From Vicinamibacterales bacterium (GTDB taxonomy: Bacteria; Acidobacteriota; Vicinamibacteria; Vicinamibacterales; UBA8438), in the NCBI GenBank assembly GCA_965116825.1, contig OZ220736.1, positions 1,403,888-1,467,887 of the forward strand: DNA of 64,000 nt. Direction: 5' to 3'. Below are positions 9,402 through 34,309 of this stretch, piece by piece. Under the pieces are notes generated by a model. The model saw only the letters and a program-made list of their open reading frames with translations. It made no database searches and had not been told where the DNA came from. Made by a program: the position numbers and the translations under genes. Numbering within the stretch: the first letter of the stretch is position 1; every line of letters starts with the position of its first letter.

Positions 9402-10424
9402 ATGATTGATACGCAGCCGGGGAGGGCGTGGTTGCCACGCAACGCCGAAGTCATCCGCCAGTGGACCATCCTGCGCGAGCTCGAAGCCTCGCGCGGCGTC
9501 ACCATCCGCCGGCTCGCCGAGACGACCGGGGTGACGACGCGCACGATTCGCCGCGACCTCGCGGCGCTGCAGGAGGCGGGCTTCCCGCTCTACGACGTGG
9601 CGGACGACGCGACGAAGCGGTGGAGGCTCGACACCCGCCCGTTCAGACGCCTCGACGACACGGCGTTCACGCTCGCGGAGCTGTCGGCCCTCTACTTCAG
9701 CCGCACGCTCGTCGACTGCTTCGCCGTCCCGCCGTTCGGACAGGACCTGCAAAGCGCGTTCGCCAAGCTGGAAGCCGCGCTCGGCCCGCGCATGCGGCAG
9801 TTCCTCGATCGCCTGCCGGACGTCATCCAGGCCAAGGCCGCGCCCGCGCGCCGGCTCGACGACCGGCAGCAACGTGCGAACATCGGCAGGCTGCTCGACG
9901 CGCTGTTGCACCAGCGCCGGCTGGACATGGATTACCACTCCCGCTCCAGCCGGCGCGAGAAGTCATACCGGATCGATCCCTACCGGCTGGTGTACGCCGA
10001 GGGCGGACTCTACCTCTTCGCCTACGTGCCGCGCTACGAGCAGGTACGCACGTTCGCGGTCGAGCGGATACGGCGCCTGACCCCGCTGGACGAGACCTTC
10101 GATCCGGTCGAGCAACTGGCCGAGGCCGCCTTCCCGCACTCCCTGGGCATCCATCAGGGCGCCCCCGAGCGGGTCGCGCTGGAGTTCGCGCCCGATCTGG
10201 CCCCTTATGTGCGAGAACGCATCTGGCACCCCTCGCAGAAGGTGGAGCCGCGGGAGGACGGGTCGGTCGGGGTCACGATGGACGTCTGCAACGACGGTGC
10301 GCTCCGAAGCTGGATCCTGAGCTTCGGACCGGGCGTGCGGGTGACGGCGCCGACCGCGCTCGCGCGGCAAATCGCGAACGACCTGGAGCAAGCGCGCGCC
10401 CGCTACGGCGGCCAGGAGCCCTGA
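9402..10424 (+). CDS. WYL-domain transcriptional regulator (wHTH-WYL-WCX)
   Basis: N-terminal HTH (VTIRRLAETTGVTTRTIRRDLAALQEAGFPLY). WYL-type core (YRIDPYRLVYAEGGLYLFAYVPRYEQVRTFAVERI). Start chosen at MIDTQ, since the track ORF begins at 9345. It is divergent from the Zn-ribbon/addBA genes. Confidence 0.8.
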   Translation: MIDTQPGRAWLPRNAEVIRQWTILRELEASRGVTIRRLAETTGVTTRTIRRDLAALQEAGFPLYDVADDATKRWRLDTRPFRRLDDTAFTLAELSALYFSRTLVDCFAVPPFGQDLQSAFAKLEAALGPRMRQFLDRLPDVIQAKAAPARRLDDRQQRANIGRLLDALLHQRRLDMDYHSRSSRREKSYRIDPYRLVYAEGGLYLFAYVPRYEQVRTFAVERIRRLTPLDETFDPVEQLAEAAFPHSLGIHQGAPERVALEFAPDLAPYVRERIWHPSQKVEPREDGSVGVTMDVCNDGALRSWILSFGPGVRVTAPTALARQIANDLEQARARYGGQEP

Positions 10425-12393: not shown

Positions 12394-12969
12394 ATGACCT
12401 GCAAGCACTGCCATCGCGACATTCCGGACGAAGCGTCCTACTGCCTGTTCTGCGGCCGACGGCAGCGGATCTCCGAGACGCTCTTTCCGAAGGCTCTGCG
12501 GCGTTCCCACGTCGATCGCAAGCTCGCCGGCATCTGCGGCGGCATCGCGCGGTATCTGGACACCGATCCGGTGTTCATCCGCGTGGCCTGGGTCATCCTG
12601 TCCATCTTCCCCGGCACGATCCTGCTCGGGGTCCTGGCCTACGTCGTGGCCTGGATCATCGTTCCGGAAGCGGAGCCGGGCGCGGAGCCGATCGTCGTCG
12701 GGGCCAAGCGGATGCAGCGGTCCGCGAACCACGTCACCGTGGCCGGCGTGTGCGGCGGCATCGCGGAGTACTTCGCTGTCGATGTGACGGCAATGCGCGT
12801 GCTGTGGGTCCTGCTCTCGATCTTCCCCGGGTTCGTGATCTGCGGCATATTCGCCTATGCGGCGGCCTGGTTCATCATGCCGGAGGCAACGGTGGTTCCA
12901 GTGGCCGCGCCGCCCTCGCCGCCGCCGGCGCCGGCGGCGGACCCCACGCCGGCCGCCAGCGGGGAGTAG
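12394..12969 (+). CDS. PspC-domain membrane protein (two PspC repeats) with N-terminal zinc ribbon
   Basis: CKHC...CLFCG at the N-terminus. Two copies of the PspC pattern (LAGICGGIARYLDTDPVFIRVAWVILSIFPG; VAGVCGGIAEYFAVDVTAMRVLWVLLSIFPG). AGGAGA Shine-Dalgarno sequence upstream. Confidence 0.8.
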   Translation: MTCKHCHRDIPDEASYCLFCGRRQRISETLFPKALRRSHVDRKLAGICGGIARYLDTDPVFIRVAWVILSIFPGTILLGVLAYVVAWIIVPEAEPGAEPIVVGAKRMQRSANHVTVAGVCGGIAEYFAVDVTAMRVLWVLLSIFPGFVICGIFAYAAAWFIMPEATVVPVAAPPSPPPAPAADPTPAASGE

Positions 12970-12972
12970 CAT

Positions 12973-12998
12973 CCGCGGCCCGGTCGACGGGGCCGCGG
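12973..12998 (+). terminator. GC-rich hairpin between the pspC-like gene and the next CDS
   Basis: CCGCGGCCC-ggtcgacg-GGGCCGCGG gives a 9-bp perfect stem, extendable by the GCAT/ATGC flanks. It starts 4 nt after the TAG and ends 1 nt before the ATG at 13000. There is no U-tract, so it could equally be a translational occluder. Confidence 0.35.
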
Positions 12999-12999
12999 T

Positions 13000-13743
13000 A
13001 TGCTCCACGGCTATATGACCGGTTCCGTCGACGCGATTCCGCTCTCCAACCTCAGTCTCTCGCTGCTCCCGGCGCTGGTGGTGCTCGTCATCCTCCAGCG
13101 CTGGTCGGCCGGCGCCGGTGCCGCACTCTACGGCGTCGGGCGCATGGTCGCGCAGCTCGCACTCGTCGGCTACGTGCTGACGTTCATCTTCGGCACCGCG
13201 CACCCGGCCGTCGTGCTCGGCACGCTGACGGTGATGCTCACCGCGGCGGGCTGGATCTCGCTACGGCCGGTGGCACGCCGCCGCAGGGCCGTCTATCCGC
13301 AGGCGCTGGCCGCGATCTGTGCGAGCGGAGTGTCGACCCTCGCCCTGATCACGCAGGGCGTCCTGGCCGCCGACCCCTGGCACGACCCGACGGTACTGAT
13401 CCCGCTGGGCGGCATGGTCTTCGCCGCGTCCATGAACGCGGTCAGCCTGTCGGCGGAACGGCTCGACGCGGAGCTCTCCCGCGGATCCTCGTACCACGAC
13501 GCGCGCCCCATCGCGATGCGCTCGGCGCTCATACCGCAGGTGAACACGCTGTTCGCCGTCGGCCTCGTATCGCTGCCGGGAATGATGACCGGCCAGATCC
13601 TGTCCGGGATCTCGCCGCTGATCGCGGTGCGCTACCAGGTCATGGTGATGTGCATGCTGTTCGGCGCGGCCGGCATGTCCGCGGCGTGCTTTCTGGCGCT
13701 GCAGCGTCCGCGCGGCGAGGAGTCGCCGACGCCTGTCGCTTGA
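13000..13743 (+). CDS. UPF0014 / FetB(YbbM)-like ABC-type permease
   Basis: Polytopic membrane protein of 247 aa. I recognise the sequence pattern as YbbM/FetB family (LVGYVLTFIFG..., MMTGQILSG). No partner ATPase gene is adjacent. Confidence 0.6.
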   Translation: MLHGYMTGSVDAIPLSNLSLSLLPALVVLVILQRWSAGAGAALYGVGRMVAQLALVGYVLTFIFGTAHPAVVLGTLTVMLTAAGWISLRPVARRRRAVYPQALAAICASGVSTLALITQGVLAADPWHDPTVLIPLGGMVFAASMNAVSLSAERLDAELSRGSSYHDARPIAMRSALIPQVNTLFAVGLVSLPGMMTGQILSGISPLIAVRYQVMVMCMLFGAAGMSAACFLALQRPRGEESPTPVA

Positions 13744-19645: not shown

Positions 19646-20641
19646 TCAGTCCGCTTTCGACCGCACACGCTGCCCCAGCGGTGTCAGCCGGTACTTCTGA
19701 TTCCTGGCGCTGGGTGCGTCGGGACGGGTCATCTCCAGGTACCCGCCCTGCAACGCGGGCAACAGGTACCGCTGCCGTAGCGACTTGCGGTCGCGGAGCC
19801 CGAGCGCGTGCAGGATTTCCCGCAGCGACATCTCGCCGTCCAGCACGGACAGCAGGCGCGCGACTTGGGGGGTGACCTGCGGGGGTTCCTGGGGGGTCCG
19901 CACGGCTGCAAGAATCACCTCCAGCATGAAGGCGACGAAAGCCGTGTTCTCGCCGGCCGCCGAGCTCTGCCGGATGGCCTCGTAGTACTCGCTCTGGCGG
20001 GCACGAACGAGGCTCTCGACGGGTACGTGCGCGAACAGGACCTTCCAGCGGGTCAGGATCAGCGTCTGCCAGAGCCGGCCCAGGCGTCCGTTGCCGTCCT
20101 CGAAGGGATGGATGAACTCGAACTCGTAGTGGAAGACCGAGCTCGTGACGAGCGGATGGTCGGCAGTGCTTCCGAGCCACGACAGCAGGTCGCCCATGAG
20201 CCGCGGCACCTGCCCGGCGGGCGGGCCGACGTGATGGACCCGATCCTGCCCCATCACGGCCGCGCCGCCGCGACGATAGCGGCCCGGCGCGTCCAACAGA
20301 GCGGTCATCAGGATCTCGTGTGCGGCCAGCAGGTCGCTTTCGCTGGTCGGGTTCCACTGCTCGTATCGATCGTAGGCCTGGATGGCGTTCCGGGCTTCCT
20401 GAACGTCCCGCAAGGGAGCAACGACCGGCTTGCCGTCGAGAATCGTCGAGATCTGCTCCTCGCTGAGAATATTGCCCTCGATGGCCAGCGAGCCCTGGAT
20501 CGTGCGGATGCGGTTGATGCGGCGCAGACGCAGGTCCCGCGAGAGACCGGCCGCCTCCGCACGCCCGACCGCTTCGGCGATCTGCGCGACCCGGGTCAGG
20601 ATGTCCGGAGTGATCCTGTACGGTGGCGGCGCTTCGCTCAT
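19646..20641 (-). CDS. Fic/DOC family protein with C-terminal winged helix
   Basis: Canonical Fic motif HPFEDGNGRLGRLW. C-terminal wHTH-like tail (LREILHALGL...QKYRLTPLG). Confidence 0.9.
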   Translation of the reverse strand: MSEAPPPYRITPDILTRVAQIAEAVGRAEAAGLSRDLRLRRINRIRTIQGSLAIEGNILSEEQISTILDGKPVVAPLRDVQEARNAIQAYDRYEQWNPTSESDLLAAHEILMTALLDAPGRYRRGGAAVMGQDRVHHVGPPAGQVPRLMGDLLSWLGSTADHPLVTSSVFHYEFEFIHPFEDGNGRLGRLWQTLILTRWKVLFAHVPVESLVRARQSEYYEAIRQSSAAGENTAFVAFMLEVILAAVRTPQEPPQVTPQVARLLSVLDGEMSLREILHALGLRDRKSLRQRYLLPALQGGYLEMTRPDAPSARNQKYRLTPLGQRVRSKAD

Positions 20642-20755: not shown

Positions 20756-23700
20756 TCAGGCCGCCGTCACGTCGTAGAACGGCGACGGCACGGTCGGGTA
20801 GGCGCGGTAGACGTGCGCGAACACGGCCTCGGTCGTAGTCGTCACGTCCTCGTCGGAATAGGCGCCAGCGGGCAGGCCCGTCTCGTCCCGGTAGAGGAAG
20901 TCGTGGATGGCGACCTTGACCGCGCTCTGGGTCGCCTCCTTCTCGCGCCACTGGTCGACCCGGAGCCTCTCCGCCTTGAGCGTCTGCAGCAGCTCCTTCG
21001 CGACGGTCTTGATGCGCCGGATGTCGGCCTTGTCCAGGTCCGGCTTCTTCAGCAGGTCGAAGATTGCCAGGGACTCCTCGTCCAGCCCCTCTCGGAGTGC
21101 GCGGTTCTCCTCTTCCTCGAGTTGCTCGAAGAACTTGAGGAGCTCCTCGAAAGTGCGCTCGATGGTCACCCGGTCCTTCTCGCGGTTGTAGTCCGCGACG
21201 ATGCGCTCGTAGTAGTGCTGCTGGAAGTCGGTCCGCAACGGATTGCGGGCCAGCAGGCGCCGGAGTCGCTCTTCCACGGTGTGCTTGAGCGCCTGCACCG
21301 CCGTCCGCTGGTTCACGCCGCGAACGTTGATGCATGCCTTGAACTTCTTGAACACCTCCCGGCACAGCACCTCGAACCGCTTGCGGGTCTCGTCGTTCTC
21401 GTTCGCGACCTCCTTGCAGGCCACGATAGCGGCGTTGCGCGCAAAGCCCGCCTTGCCGATGACGTCGTCAAGCGGCGCCCCGCCGCCGTGGAGAAAGCTC
21501 CTCACCATGGCGATCGCCTCGGCCAGGTCGGCGAGCAGCTCCTCGTCCGGTCTCGCCGGGTCGATCTCTCCGCCCGCTCCTCCTTGTCCGCCGGACGGCG
21601 TGCCGGCGAACGTCGCCAGCGCCTTGCGCAGGTGCTTGAGGACGCCGCAGTAGTCGACGATCAGGCCGTTGTTCTTGCCCTCGTTGACCCGGTTGGCGCG
21701 GGCGATGGCCTGCATCAGCGTGTGCGCCTTGAGCGGCTTGTCCAAGTAGAGGGTAGAAAGGCTGGGCACGTCGAAGCCGGTCAGCCACATGGCGCAGACG
21801 ACGGCGATGCGGAACGGGTGCTCCTGCTCCTTGAACGCGTCGTCGACGGCCATGCGCTGCAGGTTCCGGAACCGCGGCTTCGCGCGCATCTCTGCCGGCA
21901 GGTCCATGCCTTCCTTGATGATCCGCCGGTGCGGGATGATATCCAGGTCCCAGCGGCGGAACTTCTCCACCTCGCCCTGCTCTTCGCTCACCACGACCGC
22001 CGTGCGGGTGTCGCGCATCCAGTCGATCCGCCGCCGCAGGTAGATCGCCTCCTGCTCGCCGGGCGCCTTCGCGTGCTCCGCCTCCAGCTCCTCGATGCGC
22101 TCGGCCCAGTAACGCTCGATCAGCGTGTGCATCCGCACGCACGTCAGCTTGTCGATGCAGACCAGCATCGCCTTGCCGGTCTCCCACGCCGCCGAGTAGT
22201 GGCGCACGAAATCGCGGGCCACCTGGTCGAGACGCTTCTCGGCGGTGATCACGTGGTAGTCGCGCTTGAGCTCCCGCTCCAGACGCTGTGCGACGTCGAT
22301 GTCATCGGTCTCCAACTCTTCCAGCTTGTCGGCGATGCGTTCGTTCAGGTCGTCGATGGCCACGCCCAGATCGTCGCCGCGGGCGTCGTAGTAGAGCGGC
22401 ACCGTCGCGCCGTCCTCCACCGCCCGCTGAAAGTCGTAGGTGGAGACGTAGTCGCCGAACACCTTGCGCGTGATCTCGTCGTCCGTGAACAGCGGCGTGC
22501 CGGTGAAGCCGATGTAGCCGGCGTTGGGCAGGGCATTGCGCATGTTGAGGGCAAGCGTGCCGTACTGCGTGCGGTGCGCCTCGTCGCTGATGACGATGAC
22601 GTCGTCGCGCTGCGTATAGCCAGTCTCGGGATCCACGTCCTGGTTGAACTTCTGGATCAGCGAGAAAACGTGCGACTTGTGCTCGGCCAGCAGGCGGCCC
22701 AGGTGCTCTCCGCTCGATGCGCGGCACGGGTCCCGGTCGTGGTCCACCACGCCGCATCCGGCGAAGGTCTTGTATATCTGCGTGTCGAGGTCGTCGCGGT
22801 CGGTCAGCACCAGGAACGTGAAGTTGCCGCCCAGCTTCCGGCGCACCTTGCGGGTGAACAGCACCATCGAGTAGCTCTTGCCGGCCCCCTGGGTATGCCA
22901 GAAGACCCCGAGCTTCCCCGCCCGCTCCTTCCGCTCGCGCACCGCTTCCACCGCGCGGTTCACTCCCAGGAACTGGTGGTTGCGGGCCAGGATCTTCCGC
23001 GTCTCGCCGGACGACTCGTCGAAGAGGATGAAGTTCTCGACGAAGTCCAGGAAGTTGCGCTTGTCGCAGACGCCCTTGAGCAGCGTCTCCATGTCCACCG
23101 CGCCCGGCTCCTCCTCTGCCAGCCGCTTCCACTCGTGGAAGTGCCCCCACCGGCTCGTGATGGAGCCGATCTTGGCCTTCTCGCCGTTGGCGAACATCAC
23201 CACCGCGTTATGGTGGAAGAGGTGCGGGACGGTGTCGCGGTAGTCGGCGTAGTTCTTCTCGAAGGCCGCCTTCAGGTCGCGATGAATGTTCTTGCACTCG
23301 ATGAACAGCAGCGGCAGCCCGTTGACGAACCCGACGATGTCCGGCCGGCGCCGATAGAGGTCGCCCCGCACCCACATCTCGCGGACGCAGAGGAAGTGGT
23401 TCTTGTCGGGGTCGTCGAAGTCGAGCACGCGCAGGCGCCGCCGGGTCGGCCGGCCCCTGTCGTCGCGGTAGGTGACCTCGACGCCGTCGCGCAGCAGGTC
23501 GGCCTTCTCACGATTGGCGGCGACGATGGTCTGTGACCCGGTCGTCGCCGTGATCCGCCGTACCGCCTCTTGGTAGGCGTCGTCCGGCAGGCCTCGGTTC
23601 AGTTCCCGCAGTTTCTGCCGCAGAAGGCGCACCAGCACCGCCTCGCGGTCCGACTCGCGACCCAGCAGGCCGCCACCATCGAAGTCCTCCCGGTTGTGCG

Positions 23701-23791
23701 CGTAGATCGACTCCCAACCGAGCTGCTCTTCCAGGTAGTCGGCCGTGGTCTGCTGGACGAGGGTGTCCTCAGTGTAGGGGGAGGGAGTCAT
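20756..23791 (-). CDS. hsdR: Type I restriction enzyme R subunit
   Basis: 1011 aa. Contains an N-terminal nuclease region. SF2 motifs (FWHTQGAGKSYSM, VISDEAHRTQYG). Typical HsdR C-terminal domain. Confidence 0.9.
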   Translation of the reverse strand: MTPSPYTEDTLVQQTTADYLEEQLGWESIYAHNREDFDGGGLLGRESDREAVLVRLLRQKLRELNRGLPDDAYQEAVRRITATTGSQTIVAANREKADLLRDGVEVTYRDDRGRPTRRRLRVLDFDDPDKNHFLCVREMWVRGDLYRRRPDIVGFVNGLPLLFIECKNIHRDLKAAFEKNYADYRDTVPHLFHHNAVVMFANGEKAKIGSITSRWGHFHEWKRLAEEEPGAVDMETLLKGVCDKRNFLDFVENFILFDESSGETRKILARNHQFLGVNRAVEAVRERKERAGKLGVFWHTQGAGKSYSMVLFTRKVRRKLGGNFTFLVLTDRDDLDTQIYKTFAGCGVVDHDRDPCRASSGEHLGRLLAEHKSHVFSLIQKFNQDVDPETGYTQRDDVIVISDEAHRTQYGTLALNMRNALPNAGYIGFTGTPLFTDDEITRKVFGDYVSTYDFQRAVEDGATVPLYYDARGDDLGVAIDDLNERIADKLEELETDDIDVAQRLERELKRDYHVITAEKRLDQVARDFVRHYSAAWETGKAMLVCIDKLTCVRMHTLIERYWAERIEELEAEHAKAPGEQEAIYLRRRIDWMRDTRTAVVVSEEQGEVEKFRRWDLDIIPHRRIIKEGMDLPAEMRAKPRFRNLQRMAVDDAFKEQEHPFRIAVVCAMWLTGFDVPSLSTLYLDKPLKAHTLMQAIARANRVNEGKNNGLIVDYCGVLKHLRKALATFAGTPSGGQGGAGGEIDPARPDEELLADLAEAIAMVRSFLHGGGAPLDDVIGKAGFARNAAIVACKEVANENDETRKRFEVLCREVFKKFKACINVRGVNQRTAVQALKHTVEERLRRLLARNPLRTDFQQHYYERIVADYNREKDRVTIERTFEELLKFFEQLEEEENRALREGLDEESLAIFDLLKKPDLDKADIRRIKTVAKELLQTLKAERLRVDQWREKEATQSAVKVAIHDFLYRDETGLPAGAYSDEDVTTTTEAVFAHVYRAYPTVPSPFYDVTAA

Positions 23792-23939: not shown

Positions 23940-24103
23940 GTTGTCCCGTTCCCGCCTTCCCGACCTGCTCGCCCAAGCCAAGGCTTGCATCGCTGGCCCG
24001 GGCCGTCAAGGAACGACCGGGCCATCGTCTCCGAGCGCAATGCCCGTCCGCAGGGCCGCCCGCCACACCGTCGACCGTTGTTCCGGTCACCATGACGTGC
24101 TAT

Positions 24104-24134
24104 CTTGTTGTCAACAACAAGTTGAATAGTCAAC
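24104..24134. promoter_or_regulatory. clustered inverted repeats (GTTG/CAAC half-sites) just upstream of the cassette's first gene
   Basis: CTTGTTGT-CA-ACAACAAG (24104-24121) and GTTGA-ATAG-TCAAC (24121-24134) sit in a locally AT-rich stretch. They end 2 nt before the ATG at 24137. Confidence 0.45.
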
Positions 24135-24136
24135 AG

Positions 24137-24628
24137 ATGACAGTACGGTACACACCCGGCCAGCTTCGTGACGCGGCAGCCGTGCCGCCGGAGACCTATC
24201 GCCACTGGAAGAAGGCCCTGGCGCCGCTACGCCGCGACACGCGGCAGAGCCCCTGTTTCACCGCGGGAGATCTGCTCGCCGTAGCTGTCGTACGCAGCAT
24301 GACCCGCGCGTTCATCCGCGTGGGCGCGCTTTCCGTGATCGCCGAGGAACTGTTCCGTCTATGCAGCGACACTTCCTGGCCGGTCCTCGAACGCAGCCGG
24401 ATGATCGTCGACCTCGTCAACCAGCGTATCGAGCTACAACCTGAGTCCGAAGACGTCGATATCGACTCCCCGGCGCTCGTCTGTCCGCTGAGACCTCTGG
24501 TCGGTCAGCTCCGCGATGCACTGCTGACCGACGGCGAACCGGATCAGCAGAGACTCAATCTCCCGCCGGTTCCGCTGCCATCAACAACCGCAGGGCATCG
24601 ACAGGCGGTGGCTCGTGGACGCCGTTGA
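24137..24628 (+). CDS. small putative DNA-binding protein (MerR/excisionase-type HTH-like N-terminus)
   Basis: MTVRYTPGQLRDAAAVPPETYRHWKK resembles an HTH_17/MerR-type N-terminus. This is the 3' part of track ORF 23570..24628. Its end overlaps the MTase GTG start by 14 nt. Confidence 0.5.
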   Translation: MTVRYTPGQLRDAAAVPPETYRHWKKALAPLRRDTRQSPCFTAGDLLAVAVVRSMTRAFIRVGALSVIAEELFRLCSDTSWPVLERSRMIVDLVNQRIELQPESEDVDIDSPALVCPLRPLVGQLRDALLTDGEPDQQRLNLPPVPLPSTTAGHRQAVARGRR

Positions 24629-27104
24629 CACCATCGCCGACGCCGTCCGCCACATCGGCTATCGGCGGGAAGCGATTGTCCGCGACTACGCGTTCGCGGA
24701 CGTACTCGATTCTGCGGATACGACGAGAACGGTCGCGCTCGCCGCCTTTACACAGACGCCGCCTTCGTACCGGTCGGCCGCGCTCGCCGTCGTCCCGGCC
24801 GGCTACGGGAGCACGTTGGATTGGGTCACGGCGCACCGTTCGCTTGGTGCTCCTCTCCTCTTCGTCATCGAAGGCGATCAGGTCACCTTGTGGCAGGTGC
24901 GCGGCGACGCGCCGCCCAGCGTTCTGGAACGCCTGCTCCTGAATGAGGTCCCGGGGCTGTTCGAGCGACACCAGGAGGAGTGGCGTCCCCAGGCCATTCA
25001 CCGCGCCAAGGCGATCGGCGCCGTCAACCGGGAGTACCAGCTCGACTTCGTGGACGTCGGTCTGATGCCCGCTCTCGAGGGCGAAGTGCACCTCAAGCTC
25101 GACCGGCTGCTGAACGACACGCTCACGGCATCGTCGCAGGCGCCGTGCGAGAATCGTCCCGACACTGCGGCGCTCTTCCGCGTCGTCTTCCGGCTGCTCG
25201 CCGCGAAGATCCTGCAGGACCGCCGCCACCCGTATGCGCAACAATGGCACGCGGCCGACATCGCGTCCGTCCTTCGCGCGATCGAATCCTATTACTCCCT
25301 ACCCGCGGTTCCAGGGACCGGCCCCCGAACCACGTCTCCCGCTTTTGGGGCCGCCTGGGACCGTCTCCGTGGCGGAATCAATTTCTGCAACATCTCATCC
25401 GACGACCTGGCCTTCGTGTACGAGAACACTCTCGTCACCAGCGAAACCAGAAAAGACCTGGGTACGCACCGCACCCCGCACCAGCTCGCCGAATATGCGG
25501 TCGCCCGACTGAATCTCGATCGTCACGACCCTCGCGACCTCCACATCTACGAGCCTTTCGCCGGCGCCGGCACGTTCCTCGTGTCCGCCTTGCGGCACAT
25601 GCGGGACCTGCTGCCGGTCGACTGGACCGACCAGGAACGCCATGCGTTTCTGGTGGATCGCCTCTCCGGAGACGAAACGGATCCCTTCGCCTGCGAAGTC
25701 GCCATGCTTTCCCTGATCCTGGCCGACTACCCGAACCAGAACGGCTGGCGCATCCGCCGATCCGACCTGTTCGAGAGCGACGTCTTGAAGTCCCGCGTGG
25801 AGAACGGCGGTATCGTCCTGTGCAACCCGCCGTTCGAGGATTTTTCGAACGATGACCGCTCACGTTACCCGCTAGCGAATGAGTTCGACTCCAAACCGAA
25901 AGCGGTGTTGAACGCCGCACTCGACGCCCACCCGCGCGCGCTTGCGTTCGTTCTGCCGCGTCCCTTCATTCTGGATCGGGAATTCGGCGCAGAACGGCGC
26001 AGAATCGAGGAACTCTACGGAGACATCGAGTTGGTCGCCTTGCCGGATCGAATCTTCGCGGCATCCAAGATCGAATCGGCTCTTCTGCTCGCTCGCGACC
26101 CGAGACCGCCGGCGCCCCCCGTCATCATCGTGCGCTCGACCGAAGTAGCCGACCACGACCGCATCACCTTCCTGAGAACCGGACAGACGACGGCCGAACG
26201 TCGTGTCGAGCGTGCCGTCGGCAATCCACCCGTCGGCAACCTCTGGATCCCTCCGCTACCTGATCTCTGGCACTACCTGGAGTCAGCGGCCCGCCTGAGC
26301 GACCACTTTGATATCCATCGGGGTATCGAGTGGAAATCCTCGCAGGGCGACGCCTGGAGCAATGAACCTCGGACCGGTTACAGACGGGGGCTGCACAATG
26401 CCCGGCGGACGCGACAATTCACGCTGCAGAATCCCGTGTTTCTCGATTGCCGGCGGGAGAGACTTCGGCGCGCGCTCGACCTGCCCTGGGATCGCGCCAA
26501 GCTTGTAGTAAACGCTGCTCGCTTAAGCCGAAAATCATGGCGGATTGCGGCAATGCTCGATCGCAACGGGTTCGTATGCTCGCAGCAGTTCTTTGGACTG
26601 TGGCAGAAACAAAAGCTAACGGATGCACAGCTTCTGACATTCGCCGCGGTACTGAACGGCCCGGTTGCGAATGCTTTCCTCGCTGCTCACTCTCCAGCGA
26701 AGAGGATTCGTATTTCCGCCATCAAGCAGATTCCGATTCCATCGACGTTGCCGTTCCATGTGGAAAAACTGGTGGCGGAATATGTACGGCGCCTTCAGGA
26801 CTCAAGAAGGTCGGATGCCACCGAAGATCAAATGCAGAACCTCCTGACCCTGATCGACGCCGCAGTACTCGCGTCCTACGACTTGTCGGCACGACTCGAA
26901 CACGAACTGCTCGAGTTCTTTCGCGGTTCGGACCGACCGGTGGCACACGCGTGGCGACACTGGGACGAACACAATCCTGCTCCCGGTCTCACTCTGGCCG
27001 AGCGCGTGTCCGGGCGGTTCCATCCACACGGTTCGTGGATTCTCGACGTCTTTCAGCCGCTGCCAGCCGATGAAGCGGAGCTTCTCCGAACCTACGGAGC
27101 GTGA
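24615..27104 (+). CDS. gamma-class N6-adenine DNA methyltransferase with TaqI_C-like target-recognition domain and an unassigned ~270-aa N-terminal domain
   Basis: Motif I IYEPFAGAGTFLV. Motif IV IVLCNPPFEDF. C-terminal TRD-like region (LSDHFDIHRGIEWKS...). I could recognise no nuclease or helicase motifs. Confidence 0.85.
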   Translation: MDAVDTIADAVRHIGYRREAIVRDYAFADVLDSADTTRTVALAAFTQTPPSYRSAALAVVPAGYGSTLDWVTAHRSLGAPLLFVIEGDQVTLWQVRGDAPPSVLERLLLNEVPGLFERHQEEWRPQAIHRAKAIGAVNREYQLDFVDVGLMPALEGEVHLKLDRLLNDTLTASSQAPCENRPDTAALFRVVFRLLAAKILQDRRHPYAQQWHAADIASVLRAIESYYSLPAVPGTGPRTTSPAFGAAWDRLRGGINFCNISSDDLAFVYENTLVTSETRKDLGTHRTPHQLAEYAVARLNLDRHDPRDLHIYEPFAGAGTFLVSALRHMRDLLPVDWTDQERHAFLVDRLSGDETDPFACEVAMLSLILADYPNQNGWRIRRSDLFESDVLKSRVENGGIVLCNPPFEDFSNDDRSRYPLANEFDSKPKAVLNAALDAHPRALAFVLPRPFILDREFGAERRRIEELYGDIELVALPDRIFAASKIESALLLARDPRPPAPPVIIVRSTEVADHDRITFLRTGQTTAERRVERAVGNPPVGNLWIPPLPDLWHYLESAARLSDHFDIHRGIEWKSSQGDAWSNEPRTGYRRGLHNARRTRQFTLQNPVFLDCRRERLRRALDLPWDRAKLVVNAARLSRKSWRIAAMLDRNGFVCSQQFFGLWQKQKLTDAQLLTFAAVLNGPVANAFLAAHSPAKRIRISAIKQIPIPSTLPFHVEKLVAEYVRRLQDSRRSDATEDQMQNLLTLIDAAVLASYDLSARLEHELLEFFRGSDRPVAHAWRHWDEHNPAPGLTLAERVSGRFHPHGSWILDVFQPLPADEAELLRTYGA

Positions 27105-27110
27105 TCGGCC

Positions 27111-27614
27111 GTGTACGGGTACATTTTCGACACCAGCGCACTCTCTCCGTTGCTTGATCCCGCGCATTCCAGGCACGATGACGTGCGAGCGGCCATTGAC
27201 GCACTCGATCCGCGCTCGACGAAGTTCGTATCGGCAATAGTCGTGGCAGAGTTCGGCTACGGTATTCGCCTGGCCGAAACCGTTGCCGGATCTGCATCAC
27301 CCCACCTCCGACGGACGCTGACGAGAGCGCGCGAGTATGCAGTACTGGAAGTGACAAGACATACGTCCGCCGCATACGCCGAATTGAAGGCAAACCTTGC
27401 CGGAAAATACTTGACCAAAGCGCTGACGAAGAATCGGCCTCGCTGGGTGGAAGATTGGATCGACAGAGCCACCGGAAAAAAGCTCCAGATCGACGAGAAC
27501 GACTTGTGGATCTGCGCGCAGGCGAAGGAGCGCAACTTGACTGTCGTCACCGCCGACCGCCGTATGAATCGCGTTTCCAATGCCGACCGCGACGTTCGTC
27601 TTCACATGGTCTGA
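27111..27614 (+). CDS. PIN-domain (VapC-like) nuclease with an internal insertion
   Basis: GTG start 6 nt after the MTase stop. YIFDTSAL, VVAEFGYG, IDENDLWICAQA and VVTADRR supply the D-E-D-D acidic set. An extra segment of about 30 aa (LAGKYLTKALTKNRPRWVEDWIDRATGKK) is present. No antitoxin-sized ORF lies upstream. Confidence 0.75.
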   Translation: MYGYIFDTSALSPLLDPAHSRHDDVRAAIDALDPRSTKFVSAIVVAEFGYGIRLAETVAGSASPHLRRTLTRAREYAVLEVTRHTSAAYAELKANLAGKYLTKALTKNRPRWVEDWIDRATGKKLQIDENDLWICAQAKERNLTVVTADRRMNRVSNADRDVRLHMV

Positions 27615-27665
27615 GCCTCGTCGGCTACTGTTCATATGGCCACCACGCAGCGTACCGGGAGGACT

Positions 27666-28231
27666 TCATTTCTTAACGCCCTCGAGACCGGCCAGCAGTC
27701 GCCGCCCCGCTGCCGTCAAGCGGTACCGCTGCCTGCCGCTGCGCGGCTTGTCGGGAATCGTGAGTTCGAGTAGGTTCATCGCAAGGTGCCTCTCCATACC
27801 CTTCTTGAAGTTGCCGGTCCTGGTGGAGTACCCGCTCGCCGCGAGAAGCTCCCGCCCGGTGGCCGGCCGTTCCACACAGGCACTGAGCACGGTCGTCAGC
27901 CCACTGGACTGCCGATTTGCACCTGCCGTCCCGGGGAAGTCAGGCGGTATCTCTGATGGCGGCTTGGCGCACCCAGCCGAGCGGCCATCAGGATATCGTG
28001 AGCGTTCGCCTCGCTGCTCGGGTTCCGCTGTTCATATGCATCGCAAGCCTTGATGGCGTTCCGCACCCCTTGAACGTTCGTCAGCAGAGCGGCGACCGGC
28101 TTGCCGTCGAGAATCGCCGAGGCCTGGTGCCCGCTGAGGAGGTTGTCCTCAATGTCAAGCGAGTACGGCGGTTGCTGAATCGCGGAACCGGCGGCACCAA
28201 CGCGAACCGCTCCATGCTCAGGCATTCGCAT
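27666..28231 (-). pseudogene. Fic-family remnant lacking the catalytic Fido core
   Basis: Track ORF 27896..28231 aligns by eye with residues ~55-130 of the intact Fic (LDIEDNLLSGHQASAILDGKPVAALLTNVQGVRNAIKACDAYEQRNP versus LAIEGNILSEEQISTILDGKPVVAPLRDVQEARNAIQAYDRYEQWNP). Track ORF 27666..27890 matches the wHTH tail (GRQRYRLTAAG). No HPFxxGNGR motif is present. Confidence 0.75.
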
Positions 28232-29348
28232 CCCCGGACCCGTTCAGCTCCTTCTCGATCTCGTCGACGCTCGGCAGACTGCCCTTCAGCTCCTCCGGCA
28301 GCGACTCGACCAGGCGGGTCTCCCATTCGGCGACGCCCATCGGCTTGTCGAAGCCGCGCAGGGCGTACTCCACCACCAGCCGATCCTTGCTCTTGCAGAG
28401 CAGCAGGCCGATGGTCGGCTTGTCGTCGGCGTGGCGCAGCAGGTCGTCGACGGCGGAGAGGTACAGGTTCATCTGCCCGACGAAGGCGGCGTTGAACGGC
28501 ACGGCCTTGAGCTCGACGACCACGTAGCGGCGTAGCTTCAGGTGGTAGAAGAGCAGATCGGCGTAGAAATCCTGATCGCCGACCTCCAGCAGAACCTGCC
28601 GGCCGACGAACGCGAAGCCGGCGCCGAGCTCCAGGAGGAAGCGCTGCACGTGGTCTACGAGAGCCTGCTCGATCTCCCGTTCGGTTCGGGAGGCGGTAGC
28701 GCCCAGGAAATCGAACAGGTATGGGTCCTTGAACACGTGGGTCGCCAAGTCGGAGTCTTCGGGCGGCAGGGTGGCCGGAAAGTTGGTGATCGCCTTGCCG
28801 GTTCGCTCGTGCAGCCGCGACTCGATCTGCACTGCCAGAACGTTACGGCTCCAGCCTTCTTCATGTGCTTTCCTGACGTACCACAACCGGGTCTCGGGGT
28901 CCCGAAGCTTGTTCAGCAGGATCACGTGGTGCGCCCAGGGAATTTCTGCAACAACCTGTTGCACAATTCGGCGGTCCGGCCAGGCGGCGGCGAACGCGCG
29001 CATGTACCGCAGGTTGCGCGGCGACAGCCCCCGCATGTCAGAGAAGGCTTCTCGGAGATCGTCGGAAAGCCGATCGATTACCCTGGCGCCCCAACCCTCC
29101 CGGCCCTGGCGGTCGAGAATCGCTCGCCCTATGTCCCAGTACAGCAGCACGAGCCCCGCGTTGGCCGCCAGCACTACACGCAGGCGTTCCTTGCGAATGC
29201 GCTCCTTGATCTCGGCGAAGGCGGCCGTATAGTCCGCCGGCAGCCGGGCGCGCGACGGCCCGACCGGGAAGGACGCGTCCTCCCGCTGCCGGCCCCGGGA
29301 GCGCCGGTCGTCCGTGTCACTCGTTCGCGATCTGGTTGGCGCCGTCAT
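28218..29348 (-). CDS. YhcG/DUF1016-type PD-(D/E)XK nuclease
   Basis: Typical DUF1016 sequence (LLYWDIGRAI, LSPRNLRYMRAFA, YADLLFYHLKLRRYVVVELK). Its ATG overlaps the hsdM stop (ATGA). Confidence 0.85.
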   Translation of the reverse strand: MTAPTRSRTSDTDDRRSRGRQREDASFPVGPSRARLPADYTAAFAEIKERIRKERLRVVLAANAGLVLLYWDIGRAILDRQGREGWGARVIDRLSDDLREAFSDMRGLSPRNLRYMRAFAAAWPDRRIVQQVVAEIPWAHHVILLNKLRDPETRLWYVRKAHEEGWSRNVLAVQIESRLHERTGKAITNFPATLPPEDSDLATHVFKDPYLFDFLGATASRTEREIEQALVDHVQRFLLELGAGFAFVGRQVLLEVGDQDFYADLLFYHLKLRRYVVVELKAVPFNAAFVGQMNLYLSAVDDLLRHADDKPTIGLLLCKSKDRLVVEYALRGFDKPMGVAEWETRLVESLPEELKGSLPSVDEIEKELNGSGDANA

Positions 29349-31470: not shown

Positions 31471-33846
31471 CTATTCCGCCGCATCGACCTCGGAAGCGGT
31501 CACCGCCGCGCGCAACGCGGCGAGCTGCGGCGCGCAGTCCGCGAGTTGCTCGCCGCCGGGCGCCGCCTCGATCAGCCCCTGCATGCACGACACGTCCTCG
31601 GCGTATTCGGCCAGACGCCGCTTGTGGCTCGCGCGGGTCTTGGTGCACACGAGCGTGAACGGCCGGCCGCGGCGTTCGGTCACATGCTCGATATCGAGTT
31701 GCTGACCGTCGATGATCTGGTGCAGGTGCGCGCGCAGGTCCTTGCGCAACGGGAACCGCGCCGTGCGGGCCGTCGGGTCCTTGCAGAAGTCCCGCAGCCG
31801 GTCGCAGTGTTCGCAACGGCAGCCGTCGTTGGCGGCGATGGTCCAGTCGGCCGGCGGTGTGGGCGGTTCCGCGCTACGCGCCAGCAGAGAGTCGGCCGCA
31901 TACCGCCACAGCCGCGCGAAGGCTGCGCTGCCTGCCGCCCCCTCCTCGGCATGCAGCTTCGCCAGCACCGCCGGCAGCGCGCGGTCCGGCGCGACGACCC
32001 GCGGCTCGGCGGCCACGGCGCCGGCGGCCGCGGCGGCCGCGTCCGGCAACCCCAGCCGCCAGGCCAATGCGAACAGGTGGTAGACGGCCGTCTCGCTGAA
32101 TCGCGTCGGACGCCGGGAGGCCGTCCACGGGACGTCCTCCTCGGGTTCCGGCGGCAGCGCGGCGGGCAGCGCCCCCAGGGCTGCGCGCACCGTTTCCCGC
32201 AGTACGACGTCCCAGTCCGGGTCGGCAGCCGCTCGGTGCGCCTCGTCGAGGCGCCACAGCAGACCGAGCATGGCCGCGGGCCGCCGCCGGAGATGCGCGC
32301 CAATCATGTCGAGCAGGAAGTACTCCCCACCGGGCGGTCCCAGCATGTCCAGCACGGCGGCCAGCGCTTCGTTCTCGCTCCCGTCGTAGCAGGCCACGAT
32401 CACGTCCCGCAGGAAGCGCGCCGCCCCCCCTTCGTCTCGCGTGTCGCACAGCAGGCGCAGCATGCGCGCGCGGCCCGTCGCATCGGACTCGTCGAAGTCA
32501 TCGCGGCCGGCCGGCCAGATGTCGATCAGTTGCGCCGTGAGCGTCCGGATACGCTCGTCCGTGCCCTCTCCGCTCCAGTCGAGCTGTTCCGCCACCCAGG
32601 CGACTGCCGTGTCGATGCCGCTGTCCGCAACGACGGTGAGCGTCCTCGACTCCGGCCACAGGACCAGCGCGGCGCGGCGGTACGTGCGCTCGACGGTCGC
32701 GCCCTCGTTGCCGGTAGCCCCTTCGACATGCTGTTCGTCCGGCTCGATACCATCGAGCGCGCCGTGCGGCAACCGCTCCTCGGGCGACAGGTCGATCTCG
32801 CCGAACGGCGGACGACCGCCGTCAGGGCCGACCCAGCCGTCCAGCCACTGGCGATAGTCCTCCACCTCCTCCATCTCCACGTCGTCGTCTTCCGATCCAT
32901 CCCAGCCCCAGTCCGCGAATCCGCCCGAATACGAGGCGGCCCCCCATTCCTCGAGATGCAGAATGGCCGCGTGCAGCGCGCAGTCGGCTCGCCCGGCGGC
33001 CGCCGCCAGAATGCGCGCCAGAGCGGCGTCGCGGTTCTTCAACGCGTCGAACGACAGACCCGCCTCGCTGTATTCGTGCTCCAGCACCCAGGCGAGCTTC
33101 TCGACCGCGTCCGGCCCGCGCCGCCACGCGGCCAGCCGCCTGGCGAGCCGGTCGACCTGCTGGTCGTAGTCGGGCGCCGTGCGGGGCGTATCGTTGTCGC
33201 CGGCGCGCAGGCACAGACTGAACACGAGCGACAGGCGGTACCCCTCGGTGACCGGCCTGACCTCGTGTTCGCAGTCGGCGTAGAACGCGGCGAACGCCAG
33301 CTCGGACGGCTCGGCTGCGTTCATGTCGATGGCGCGCTCGCGTCCACGGTGACGGACGACGATCTCGCCTCCGGTACCCGCAACGGGCAGCGAAATCGAC
33401 AGCGTGGCGATCATGCCGTCGGCCTTCTCGGTGTCGCGGTGGGAGACGAAGAAGCCTCCCGGCTCGTAGATCAACAGCTTGTAGAGATGGGCGTCCAACC
33501 GGTCCAAGGGGCAGCCGAGGCCGTCGGCCGCCGCGGTCAGGATCCTGCCGAACGTGTCATGCCACCCCGCGCCGGCCAGACGAATGCGTGCGGCGTCTAT
33601 CTGCCGGCAGTCGCGCACGTTCGGGTCGACCACCGTTGCCGGCCCCTTGCCGTACGGCGCGCGTTCCGCGACCGCGATCAGTGCCTGGAGCTGCGCTTCC
33701 GGCACCGGAAACGACAGGGCGCCGGCACCCTTCGCCTCCAGCACCGGCATGGGCGCCAGCAACCGGCCGTGGGCGCAGAAATCGCCCGGGCGGTCGACCT
33801 CCAGGAGCAACTCCTCGATCGCCTGTTCCAGCTTGCCTCGCGCCAC
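31471..33846 (-). CDS. large 2OG-Fe(II) oxygenase-domain protein with a long C-terminal extension ending in a Cys-rich module
   Basis: Double-stranded beta-helix motifs FFVSHRDTEK (HxD) and YADCEHEVRPVTEGYRLSLVF (distal His and Arg). C-terminal GCRCEHCDRLRDFC. GTG at 33846 chosen to avoid overlapping the upstream VOC gene; the start is uncertain. Its stop is 14 nt from the hsdM ATG. Confidence 0.7.
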   Translation of the reverse strand: MARGKLEQAIEELLLEVDRPGDFCAHGRLLAPMPVLEAKGAGALSFPVPEAQLQALIAVAERAPYGKGPATVVDPNVRDCRQIDAARIRLAGAGWHDTFGRILTAAADGLGCPLDRLDAHLYKLLIYEPGGFFVSHRDTEKADGMIATLSISLPVAGTGGEIVVRHRGRERAIDMNAAEPSELAFAAFYADCEHEVRPVTEGYRLSLVFSLCLRAGDNDTPRTAPDYDQQVDRLARRLAAWRRGPDAVEKLAWVLEHEYSEAGLSFDALKNRDAALARILAAAAGRADCALHAAILHLEEWGAASYSGGFADWGWDGSEDDDVEMEEVEDYRQWLDGWVGPDGGRPPFGEIDLSPEERLPHGALDGIEPDEQHVEGATGNEGATVERTYRRAALVLWPESRTLTVVADSGIDTAVAWVAEQLDWSGEGTDERIRTLTAQLIDIWPAGRDDFDESDATGRARMLRLLCDTRDEGGAARFLRDVIVACYDGSENEALAAVLDMLGPPGGEYFLLDMIGAHLRRRPAAMLGLLWRLDEAHRAAADPDWDVVLRETVRAALGALPAALPPEPEEDVPWTASRRPTRFSETAVYHLFALAWRLGLPDAAAAAAGAVAAEPRVVAPDRALPAVLAKLHAEEGAAGSAAFARLWRYAADSLLARSAEPPTPPADWTIAANDGCRCEHCDRLRDFCKDPTARTARFPLRKDLRAHLHQIIDGQQLDIEHVTERRGRPFTLVCTKTRASHKRRLAEYAEDVSCMQGLIEAAPGGEQLADCAPQLAALRAAVTASEVDAAE

Positions 33847-33877
33847 GGCCCTCCCCCGGTCCTTCGACTGCCACCGC

Positions 33878-34309
33878 CTATCCTGACCGCGGGGGCGTGT
33901 GGACAATCTCGTACTTGATTCCCTCGAGGTCCTTGAAGAAGAGCGCATAGTAGCCCGGCGGCACGTACTCCGGGTACTCCCGCGGCGGGTTCACGATCAT
34001 GGCGCCGATCTTCGTCAACTCTCGATGCAGCCGATCGACCTCGGCGCGGGACGCCGCCCTGAACGCAAGGTGGTGCAGCGCGCCGGGTCTGCGGCGATTG
34101 ACGGCATCGTCGCGAAACGCGCTTCGCGGCGAGTTGATGGCGAAGCCCAACCGCGGATGCAGGTATTCGACGACGTGCAGCTCGTGATCCTCCAGCACGG
34201 CGCTGTTCCTGCTCTTGAGGTCGAAGCCGAGGAGCGGAAGGAGCTTGTCGTAGAACGGCGCCGCGACGCGCATGTCCTGCACGGTGATCTCGATATGGTC
34301 GATGATCAT
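33878..34309 (-). CDS. VOC/glyoxalase-family protein
   Basis: MIIDHIEITVQDM...HHLAFRA...YALFFKDLEGIKYEIV is a typical VOC fold pattern. An internal ATG was chosen. Confidence 0.75.
   Translation of the reverse strand: MIIDHIEITVQDMRVAAPFYDKLLPLLGFDLKSRNSAVLEDHELHVVEYLHPRLGFAINSPRSAFRDDAVNRRRPGALHHLAFRAASRAEVDRLHRELTKIGAMIVNPPREYPEYVPPGYYALFFKDLEGIKYEIVHTPPRSG

Follow-up and report, generated by a model that had tools for sequence, protein, structure and literature searches.

The window analysed here (64,000 nucleotides of a Vicinamibacterales bacterium, GenBank assembly GCA_965116825.1, contig OZ220736.1, positions 1,403,888 to 1,467,887 of the forward strand) carries a 3.5-kb cassette with its own regulator and operator, in which a small gene, a gene for a DNA methyltransferase (MTase) and a gene for a PIN-domain protein follow one another on the same strand. 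We propose, with confidence evenly balanced for and against, that this cassette is a methylation-linked toxin-antitoxin (TA) or abortive-infection module and not a restriction enzyme, in which a repressor would control the operon and the MTase would silence the PIN toxin through its C-terminal module. The MTase is put forward as the neutralising partner because, among its relatives, the C-terminus changes together with the toxin and is recognisably an antitoxin domain in one branch.

Arrangement and conservation of the cassette

The small regulator gene (24137..24628, + strand, ATG start) encodes 163 aa, the MTase gene (24615..27104, + strand, GTG start) 829 aa and the PIN gene (27111..27614, + strand, GTG start) 167 aa. 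The small open reading frame (ORF) ends at 24628 and overlaps the MTase start at 24615 by 14 nt, while the gap between the end of the MTase stop codon at 27104 and the PIN start at 27111 is 6 nt, the same tight packing that had been given in a preliminary description made from the letters of the window. That description had assigned 164 residues to the small protein; the ORF is indeed present, but its start is most likely the ATG at 24137 (MTVRYTPGQ...), as in most homologues, which leaves 163 residues. Position 24134 offers no start codon, and gene callers in relatives picked an upstream ATG that gives 178 aa.

A genomic scan with the MTase alignment returned 80 loci from Acidobacteriota and the Alpha-, Beta-, Gamma- and Deltaproteobacteria, and the PIN gene lay directly downstream of the MTase gene in 78 of them. 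The reciprocal metagenome scan, seeded with PIN, also gave 80 loci, and in 77 of these the MTase gene comes directly before the PIN gene; of the other three, two offer less than 40 nt of sequence on the upstream side and one has a 5′-truncated PIN gene. The two genes are separated by gaps of about 10 nt at most, or they overlap. Since the arrangement recurs in about 155 independent loci, it is far beyond chance, and the three genes do behave as the single unit that had been suspected; their homologues are co-localised in other genomes, against the scattering that had been named as a refutation. The small protein was detected upstream of the MTase by phmmer in 59 loci of the genomic scan, and in a further 19 the small-gene position is held by a diverged ORF that is homologous by hhalign.

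No fourth conserved gene was found around the trio in the 80 genomic loci. The neighbours of the cassette vary and include integrases, insertion sequence (IS) elements, Tn7-like genes, UvrD/AAA, nSTAND3, Shedu, ApeA, Type IIG and type I genes. The cassette occurs on three plasmids, and it had no match in the phage collections searched (50,697 phage records; INPHARED) or in any IMG/VR contig. It is a self-contained, horizontally mobile operon, whose products are annotated by NCBI only as “hypothetical protein”, “N-6 DNA methylase” and “PIN domain-containing protein”.

An apparent loss of the PIN and small genes in close relatives (L085-L090) was rejected as a gene-calling artefact, as tblastn shows all three genes intact. 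The stored calls at these loci (around 9520-10011 and 12497-13000) miss the regulator and/or the PIN gene, or place a shadow ORF on the other strand, so that automated annotation of high-GC genomes may overlook some copies of the cassette.

The C-terminal tail of the methyltransferase changes with the downstream gene

The first 165 residues of the MTase match about 474 clusters (50% identity) among 1.84 billion proteins, and the match to the N-terminal domain (N-domain) always lies at the N-terminus of related MTases of about 820-1000 aa. Similarity to the window MTase runs on through the target recognition domain (TRD) and ends at residues ~769-802, after which the remaining 30-225 residues differ. 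When 74 tail sequences (73 representatives and the window protein) were classified, 22 had the tail of the window type (aa 776-829, 26940..27101, + strand; H.W..W....PGL.LAE....GSW....F.PLP..EA..LR.YG), three had an MbcA-like tail and 49 had other tails. Each tail variant with an examined neighbourhood has a different downstream gene.

The branch with the MbcA-like tail is the most informative. On plasmid 8 of Rhizobium sp. Q54 (LR606151), the tail of a 945-aa homologue matches Pfam Xre_MbcA_ParS_C, and the gene overlapping it encodes a RES toxin (E = 1.5e-16). Marine contigs carry a 153-aa small ORF and a 935-aa MTase gene followed by a RES gene; in these RES-type cassettes, the RES gene overlaps the MTase gene or starts 3 nt away. 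A profile of four RES-type tails matched Xre_MbcA_ParS_C (E = 9.3e-5) and the corresponding middle (_M) domain (E = 6e-4), and its three best matches in the PDB were MbcA (6fkg, E = 0.0015), Rv2175c and ParS. RES was found in the sister cassettes L175 and L180 only, and the window cassette has PIN instead. The small protein of the RES-type cassette is a full-length homologue of that in the window, including the motif in its own C-terminal tail (hhalign 99.9%). It is therefore the tail of the MTase, and not the small protein, that co-varies with the toxin.

Other tails are followed by further small ORFs that overlap the MTase stop, encoding 136 aa (L177:6119-6529), 163 aa (L173:9000-9491) and 212 aa (L176:3071-3709). 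These downstream effectors of other branches had no credible match in Pfam, NCBIfam or the PDB sequences, and the three proteins are candidates for new toxin families. Behind one 40%-identical MTase with a different tail, a homologous PIN still follows, with its insertion kept. The 54-aa tail of the window MTase would, on this evidence, be a PIN-specific, antitoxin-like element that binds PIN.

A predicted N6-adenine methyltransferase lacking nuclease and motor

The 829-aa protein is a gamma-class N6-adenine DNA MTase with a TRD, in a layout like that of Type IIG/IIL enzymes, and its more than 1500 homologues (about 829-830 aa, 57-94% identity) are spread across phyla. Pfam N6_Mtase matched residues 262-418 (E = 2.9e-10), and the match to MmeI_Mtase was weak. 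Motif I (EPFAGAG, 313-319) and motif IV (NPPF, 404-407) stand in the catalytic domain (25515..26144, + strand, aa ~301-510), which is followed by a TaqI_C-like target recognition region with a helical end (26145..26939, + strand, aa ~511-775); the TaqI_C match is weak in the window protein (E = 0.094) and clearer in homologues (E = 3.7e-6). Both motifs and the TaqI_C-like TRD had been recognised in the preliminary description, as had the lack of a nuclease and a motor: no motor domain and no (D/E)XK nuclease motif was found in the 829 residues. Among 65 family members, motif I and NPP are invariant and F407 is nearly so, and the same holds across the broader family, which indicates that methylation matters. 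We thus predict from the sequence that the MTase is catalytically active on N6-adenine.

The AlphaFold2 (AF2) model of the MTase has a mean pLDDT of 64.5, with about 80 over the N-terminal 125 residues and a poor TRD. Its closest solved structures by Foldseek are DrdV, BpuSI, HsdM, LlaBIII, BsaXI, MmeI and BrxX/PglX, and the alignments to DrdV and BpuSI extend over about 650-690 columns.

The N-terminus, left unassigned in the preliminary description with a proposal to examine it by hidden Markov models, gave no credible match in Pfam or PDB profile searches. The N-domain (24615..24989, + strand, aa 1-125) is an alpha/beta domain with the topology a-b-b-b-a-b-b-b-a, for which Pfam (E up to 10) returned chance matches only and no MmeI_N, and a 25-sequence profile against the PDB returned only a chance thioredoxin match. 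Its conserved residues (IGY, Y25, D29, LAAF.Q.PPSYR, ALGAP and W93) include no Lys, and a conserved acidic-X-Lys motif is absent from residues 1-125 in 65 close and 74 distant members. The domain is placed where Type IIG/IIL enzymes carry their nuclease; judging from the topology of the model, a degenerate PD-(D/E)XK fold is our guess. The following linker (24990..25109, + strand, aa 126-165; RAK ... QLDF.D.GL.PALE ... KLD) is the best-conserved stretch of the MTase, with a conservation of 0.83 over 141-160, and is invariant across the broad family, and it is predicted to be disordered in isolation (pLDDT ~30).

Another reading would make this protein an orphan MTase under regulation that serves epigenetic or housekeeping purposes, and the PIN protein a harmless RNA-processing enzyme co-transcribed by happenstance. 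The lack of a recognisable restriction nuclease, the conserved TRD and the transcription factor that heads the operon would all agree with this. We nevertheless hold it to be highly improbable, as the cassette is distributed patchily and moves horizontally among variable islands and plasmids, the toxin families are interchangeable, and the PIN clade never occurs apart from the MTase. The base composition also speaks against it, with the cassette (GC 0.60-0.65) lying below its high-GC surroundings (0.66-0.75 overall); the more AT-rich 3′ half that had been noticed by eye is borne out by a GC of 0.60-0.61 over 26001-28000 versus 0.66-0.70 in the flanks.

The PIN protein is related to VapC-type toxins

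The PIN protein is of the VapC type (Pfam PIN, E = 4e-16), and the solved structures matched by its family profile in the PDB are VapC5, VapC2, FitB and VapC1. Family members keep D7, E47, D128/D131 and D149 as acidic residues and share an insertion of ~25-30 aa (RPRW.EDW.D..TGKKLQ) that is specific to this clade; the full acidic set and the insertion noticed in the single window protein are hence family-wide features. PIN had no PADLOC match, NCBIfam gave only a sub-threshold match to a generic VapC model, and a Pfam scan found no NTPase domain in the 167-aa protein. The lack of an antitoxin-sized ORF in front of PIN is equally general: none fits between the MTase and PIN genes in any locus examined. 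A conventional antitoxin that had simply been missed in the window had been named as a case that would overturn the interpretation, and the PIN clade is without an antitoxin gene in all loci.

VapC-type PINs have RNA as their substrate, and the known RES toxins (MbcT and ParT) act on NAD+ or ADP-ribosylate protein. As PIN and RES fill the same slot, the job of the effector would be generic toxicity and not site-specific DNA cleavage, and PIN is most likely an RNase acting on tRNA or rRNA.

The same findings bear on a system resembling restriction-modification (R-M), the first of three alternatives in the preliminary description, in which the MTase and its TRD would recruit PIN to cut unmethylated DNA and PIN would replace the lost PD-(D/E)XK nuclease of a Type IIG/IIL ancestor. 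The structural neighbours of the MTase (DrdV, BpuSI and MmeI) are Type IIG/IIL enzymes, the N-domain sits in the nuclease position without catalytic residues, a nuclease gene is tightly coupled to that of the MTase, and the regulator is controller-like. Yet sister branches fill the effector slot with RES and an MbcA-type tail or with unrelated small proteins, which is incompatible with a dedicated DNA-cleavage subunit, and the nearest solved relatives of PIN are the VapC and FitB toxins of TA pairs. Hypervariability of the TRD, sought as an R-M signature, was not found (mean pairwise distance 0.53 versus 0.40 in the catalytic domain and 0.49 in the N-domain). The 2017 survey of the PIN superfamily states that PIN-like nucleases had not been demonstrated as restriction modules, and it reports no PIN from type II R-M contexts (PMC5499597). 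An R-M-like cassette has accordingly become quite improbable.

A putative MerR/CvkR-like regulator and a conserved palindrome head the operon

The small protein had no match in Pfam, NCBIfam 20.0 or PADLOC-DB 2.0.0. The closest PDB structure to its AF2 model (pLDDT 78) is the MerR-type CvkR (7xn2, Foldseek E = 4.8e-3, TM-scores 0.50/0.54, 150 columns), and distant orthologues match Pfam MerR_1 and NCBIfam HspR, in line with the helix-turn-helix (HTH)-like character first ascribed to the protein. A putative HTH of the MerR type (YTPGQLR..ETYRHWKK) forms its N-terminus, the middle is a compact domain, and the last ~30 residues (134-164) are a disordered tail that carries a conserved Q..L.(F/L)PP motif. 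On the strength of structure prediction and the distant orthologues, the small protein looks like a MerR/CvkR-like regulator.

An 18-bp palindrome, CTTGTTGTCAACAACAAG, built as CTTGTTGT-CA-ACAACAAG, lies at 24104-24121, with 15 nt between it and the start codon of the small gene. This is the only copy in the window, where 0 are expected (100 shuffles). In 50 of 92 dereplicated loci from several phyla, the palindrome is kept with no more than 3 mismatches and in a fixed position relative to the MTase start (about -497 to -520), although the DNA around it is unconserved. The stacked GTTG/CAAC repeats noticed earlier in front of the cassette are thus conserved in part, as the palindrome recurs but the second small repeat, GTTGA-ATAG-TCAAC (24121-24134), is not conserved elsewhere.

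A putative promoter (24078..24106, + strand) has a -35-like TTGTTC (24078-24083), a 17-nt spacer and a -10-like TATCTT (24101-24106). A TTG-containing hexamer followed after 17-18 nt by a (T/C)ATCTT box recurs upstream of, or overlapping, the palindrome in many loci, and the recurrence of this sequence pattern suggests that the two elements are the -35 and -10 boxes. Since the palindrome covers part of the putative -10 box and the probable start of transcription, simple autorepression is predicted, with the small protein as the presumed palindrome-binding protein. MerR activators have their operator between the -35 and -10 boxes and a long spacer, whereas here the spacer has 17 nt and the palindrome begins inside the -10-like box and extends beyond it, which is the geometry of a repressor.

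A small DNA-binding protein with these properties could itself be the PIN antitoxin, in a tripartite TA system in which its tail would act in the manner of VapB and the MTase would be a passenger or an accessory. The HTH, the disordered tail with Q..L.FPP and the operator over the promoter are antitoxin-like traits. The same protein, tail motif included, however accompanies RES-type cassettes, some branches appear without an upstream same-strand small gene, and it is the MTase, not the small gene, that adjoins and is translationally coupled to the toxin in every locus; we consider a tripartite system unlikely. Of the second early alternative, in which either the MTase tail or the HTH protein restrains PIN, the part concerning the MTase tail is now the best supported, through the sister branches with MbcA-like tails and RES, while restraint by the HTH protein is weakened by its constancy next to RES. 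The third, a controller-regulated MTase, gains a MerR/CvkR-like regulator and a conserved operator, but the regulator is not an Xre-type C protein and the obligate toxin is left unexplained.

A model for the action of the cassette

The favoured reading, the methylation-linked TA or abortive-infection module, can be set out as follows. The MerR/CvkR-like repressor would bind the palindrome over its own promoter and set the expression level of the operon. The PIN toxin would be translationally coupled to the MTase, whose C-terminal module would hold it inactive in the fashion of an antitoxin domain, while the rest of the MTase would read and write the methylation state of DNA. What PIN and RES act on cannot be shielded by methylation, which most plausibly sets the state of a sensor. 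In a resident cell the sites of the genome would be methylated and the MTase-PIN complex silent; many unmodified sites on incoming DNA, attack by an anti-restriction protein or loss of the cassette might then release the toxin. PIN would act as a generic growth-arrest effector and not as a sequence-specific restriction DNase, and the growth stop would amount to abortive infection or post-segregational killing. The neutralisation of PIN by the tail, the RNA target, the trigger and a phage-defence phenotype are steps that we infer.

Several observations weigh against this model. An 829-aa enzyme is unusual as an antitoxin and nothing suggests that it is labile, and the reason why catalytic methylation is conserved is explained by inference only. 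The MbcA-like Pfam matches lie under the gathering scores (22.8 versus 24.5 and 19.9 versus 27.8 bits) and come from four sequences; with matches this weak, the case for an antitoxin tail depends on three weak signals that converge with the RES neighbour. A crude mirror-tree analysis gave no tail-specific covariation with PIN (partial correlation -0.07, compared with 0.47 and 0.41 for the helical region and the linker), so the interface could lie elsewhere, for example in the conserved, low-confidence linker 126-165. A frameshifted MTase ORF stands next to an intact PIN gene at L045, L052, L059, L082 and L169. At least the frameshift at L082 looks like an assembly artefact, because the DNA there otherwise matches that of the window almost exactly; any of these loci that is real would argue against an essential antitoxin role of the MTase. 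The neighbours of the cassette include defence genes, but not overwhelmingly so. Finally, a consensus promoter scan called no promoter at 24078-24106, where 7 of 12 consensus positions are matched.

The cassette may alternatively serve addiction only, stabilising plasmids and islands by post-segregational killing, with the MTase-antitoxin fusion decaying or being diluted after cassette loss, methylation being a side activity or an epigenetic mark, and no role in phage defence. The architecture evidence (MbcA-like tail, RES and a constant small protein) is the same as for the favoured module, plasmids carry the cassette, its neighbours include integrases, IS and Tn7-like genes, and an autoregulatory operator over the promoter, the arrangement predicted here, is what type II TA operons usually have. 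What this explanation leaves unaccounted for is that ~474 clusters have retained motifs I and IV and a full TRD, and that the cassette has inserted repeatedly in defence islands, the type I R-M locus among them; moreover, nothing indicates that the large MTase is unstable. We regard it as possible, though improbable on balance.

We also put forward, tentatively and as less probable than not, that the cassette represents a new class of immune sensor, in which the MTase marks self and, on meeting foreign DNA or an anti-restriction protein, frees an exchangeable toxin held by its tail. If the MTase is indeed both self-marker and toxin keeper, epigenetic discrimination of self from non-self and TA or abortive infection would be joined in one polypeptide without any cutting of DNA. 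The logic would be that of R-M but its output abortive infection, and no earlier family would have an MTase as its TA antitoxin. A large number of ‘orphan’ N-6 DNA methylases (~474 clusters at 50% identity, in many phyla), which so far carry just the generic annotations given above, would then be explained. The swappable tail/toxin pairs would amount to a natural experiment on the grafting of antitoxin modules onto sensors, and the downstream effectors of 136-212 aa, which belong to no recognisable family, are candidate new toxins.

Genomic setting of the cassette

In the window, the cassette sits inside a type I R-M locus that is encoded on the opposite strand, with Fic and DUF1016 neighbours. 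HsdR (20756-23791, - strand) is followed downstream by a full-length Fic gene (19646-20641, - strand; PADLOC SoFic model, E = 4.7e-41). On the other side of the cassette lie Fic-like remnants (27666-28231, - strand) in the form of a 74-aa and a 111-aa ORF, and a DUF1016/YhcG PD-(D/E)XK protein (28218-29348, - strand; PADLOC candidate PDC-S02, E = 2.7e-149) encoded between the cassette and hsdM (from 29345, - strand). The full-length Fic and the DUF1016/YhcG protein around the type I genes mark the locus as a small defence island.

In close relatives (91% MTase identity), the cassette occupies the same site, between hsdR and an SLFN/HATPase gene, and SLFN_AlbA_2/HATPase, hsdS and Fic genes are present (L089:12991-16207). 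No hsdS lies between hsdM and hsdR in the window, where Fic-like fragments alone remain, and the type I system has probably been inactivated by a deletion of ~2.4 kb. This loss in the surrounding locus has left the cassette intact. Metagenomic contigs with the same arrangement encode a PIN that is 100% identical to that of the window. Directly adjoining hsdM is a gene for an 825-aa 2OG-Fe(II) oxygenase-domain protein (31471-33948, - strand). Such a gene stands by hsdM in related loci as well (L089:19686-22088), and it may be a conserved accessory gene of the type I locus.

Three further neighbourhoods deserve mention. DEAD/ResIII/Helicase_C_2 helicases of ~830 aa occur by both PIN- and RES-type cassettes, with 26-55% identity to each other (DinG-like; L171:5538-8012, L180:255-2768, L041:13176-15683 and L012:1-822). 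A DinG/DEAD-like helicase was rejected as a fourth core component since it is adjacent in only ~5 of ~165 loci, although an optional partnership is conceivable. One and the same 3,725-bp contig with the cassette (L022-L029) was assigned in one study to eight metagenome-assembled genomes of different genera. It was rejected as a mini-plasmid because terminal repeats are absent and its PIN breaks off after residue 83, and it is likely to reflect cross-bin contamination or a shared multi-copy element. On the Sinorhizobium plasmid pSchITTGS70c (L172:17917-20466), genes for a nucleotide-kinase-domain protein, a TylF-like O-methyltransferase and a thymidylate synthase follow ~6 kb downstream, a cluster reminiscent of nucleotide or DNA modification modules.

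Comparison with known systems

The preliminary description knew of no system with this architecture, and a cassette that joins an MTase to PIN or to RES is likewise described neither in PADLOC, NCBIfam and Pfam nor in the full-text literature that was searched; the matches of the window MTase in PADLOC and NCBIfam are to generic MTase models only. The cassette would combine the logic of TA and abortive-infection systems with a Type IIG-like MTase, a combination that, as far as we found, has not been named or described before.

With Type IIG/IIL enzymes (MmeI, DrdV and BpuSI) and the BREX protein PglX/BrxX, the MTase shares an N-domain, a helical spacer, a gamma N6-adenine MTase domain and a TRD in one chain. 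Unlike the Type IIG/IIL enzymes, it has no D...(D/E)XK, and a separate toxin gene is obligatory; Pfam MmeI_N, MmeI_hel and MmeI_TRD had no match in the window MTase. No PADLOC model of BREX matched the eight window proteins searched (the cassette and five neighbours), and no BREX partner genes are conserved in the 80 loci.

Type II R-M systems with a C protein offer another parallel, as their operon too begins with the gene for a small DNA-binding protein, preceded by a palindromic operator, an arrangement that would delay or limit expression after transfer. The cassette departs from them in that its regulator is MerR/CvkR-like and not Xre-type, the order is C-M-toxin in one operon, and the regulator is predicted to be a repressor only.

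Among TA systems, the cassette resembles VapBC in its PIN, with the conserved acidic set and VapC as nearest structures, and would resemble it also in autoregulation if the palindrome is the operator of the small protein, as predicted. In place of a small VapB gene before the toxin, however, it has an 829-aa MTase, a separate MerR-like regulator heads the operon, and PIN carries the clade-specific insertion. The likeness to the Xre-RES systems (MbcTA and ParST) lies in the sister cassettes, where RES is preceded by middle and C-terminal toxin-binding domains of the MbcA/ParS type; there the core of N-domain, MTase and TRD replaces the Xre HTH of the antitoxin, and the window cassette has PIN and another tail.

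The closest precedent for the proposed mode of action is PrrC-EcoprrI. PrrC is kept latent by EcoprrI and activated by a T4 inhibitor of EcoprrI (PMC1484252). In that pair an RNase toxin is bound, both genetically and physically, to a methylation/restriction enzyme that silences it, and a phage attack on the enzyme sets it free, much as is proposed for the cassette. PrrC is an ABC-ATPase fused to an anticodon nuclease and resides inside a complete HsdMSR (type Ic) system, whereas the cassette has a single MTase-TRD chain without a restriction subunit, a VapC-type PIN or a RES protein as its effector, and a predicted antitoxin-like tail fused to the MTase.

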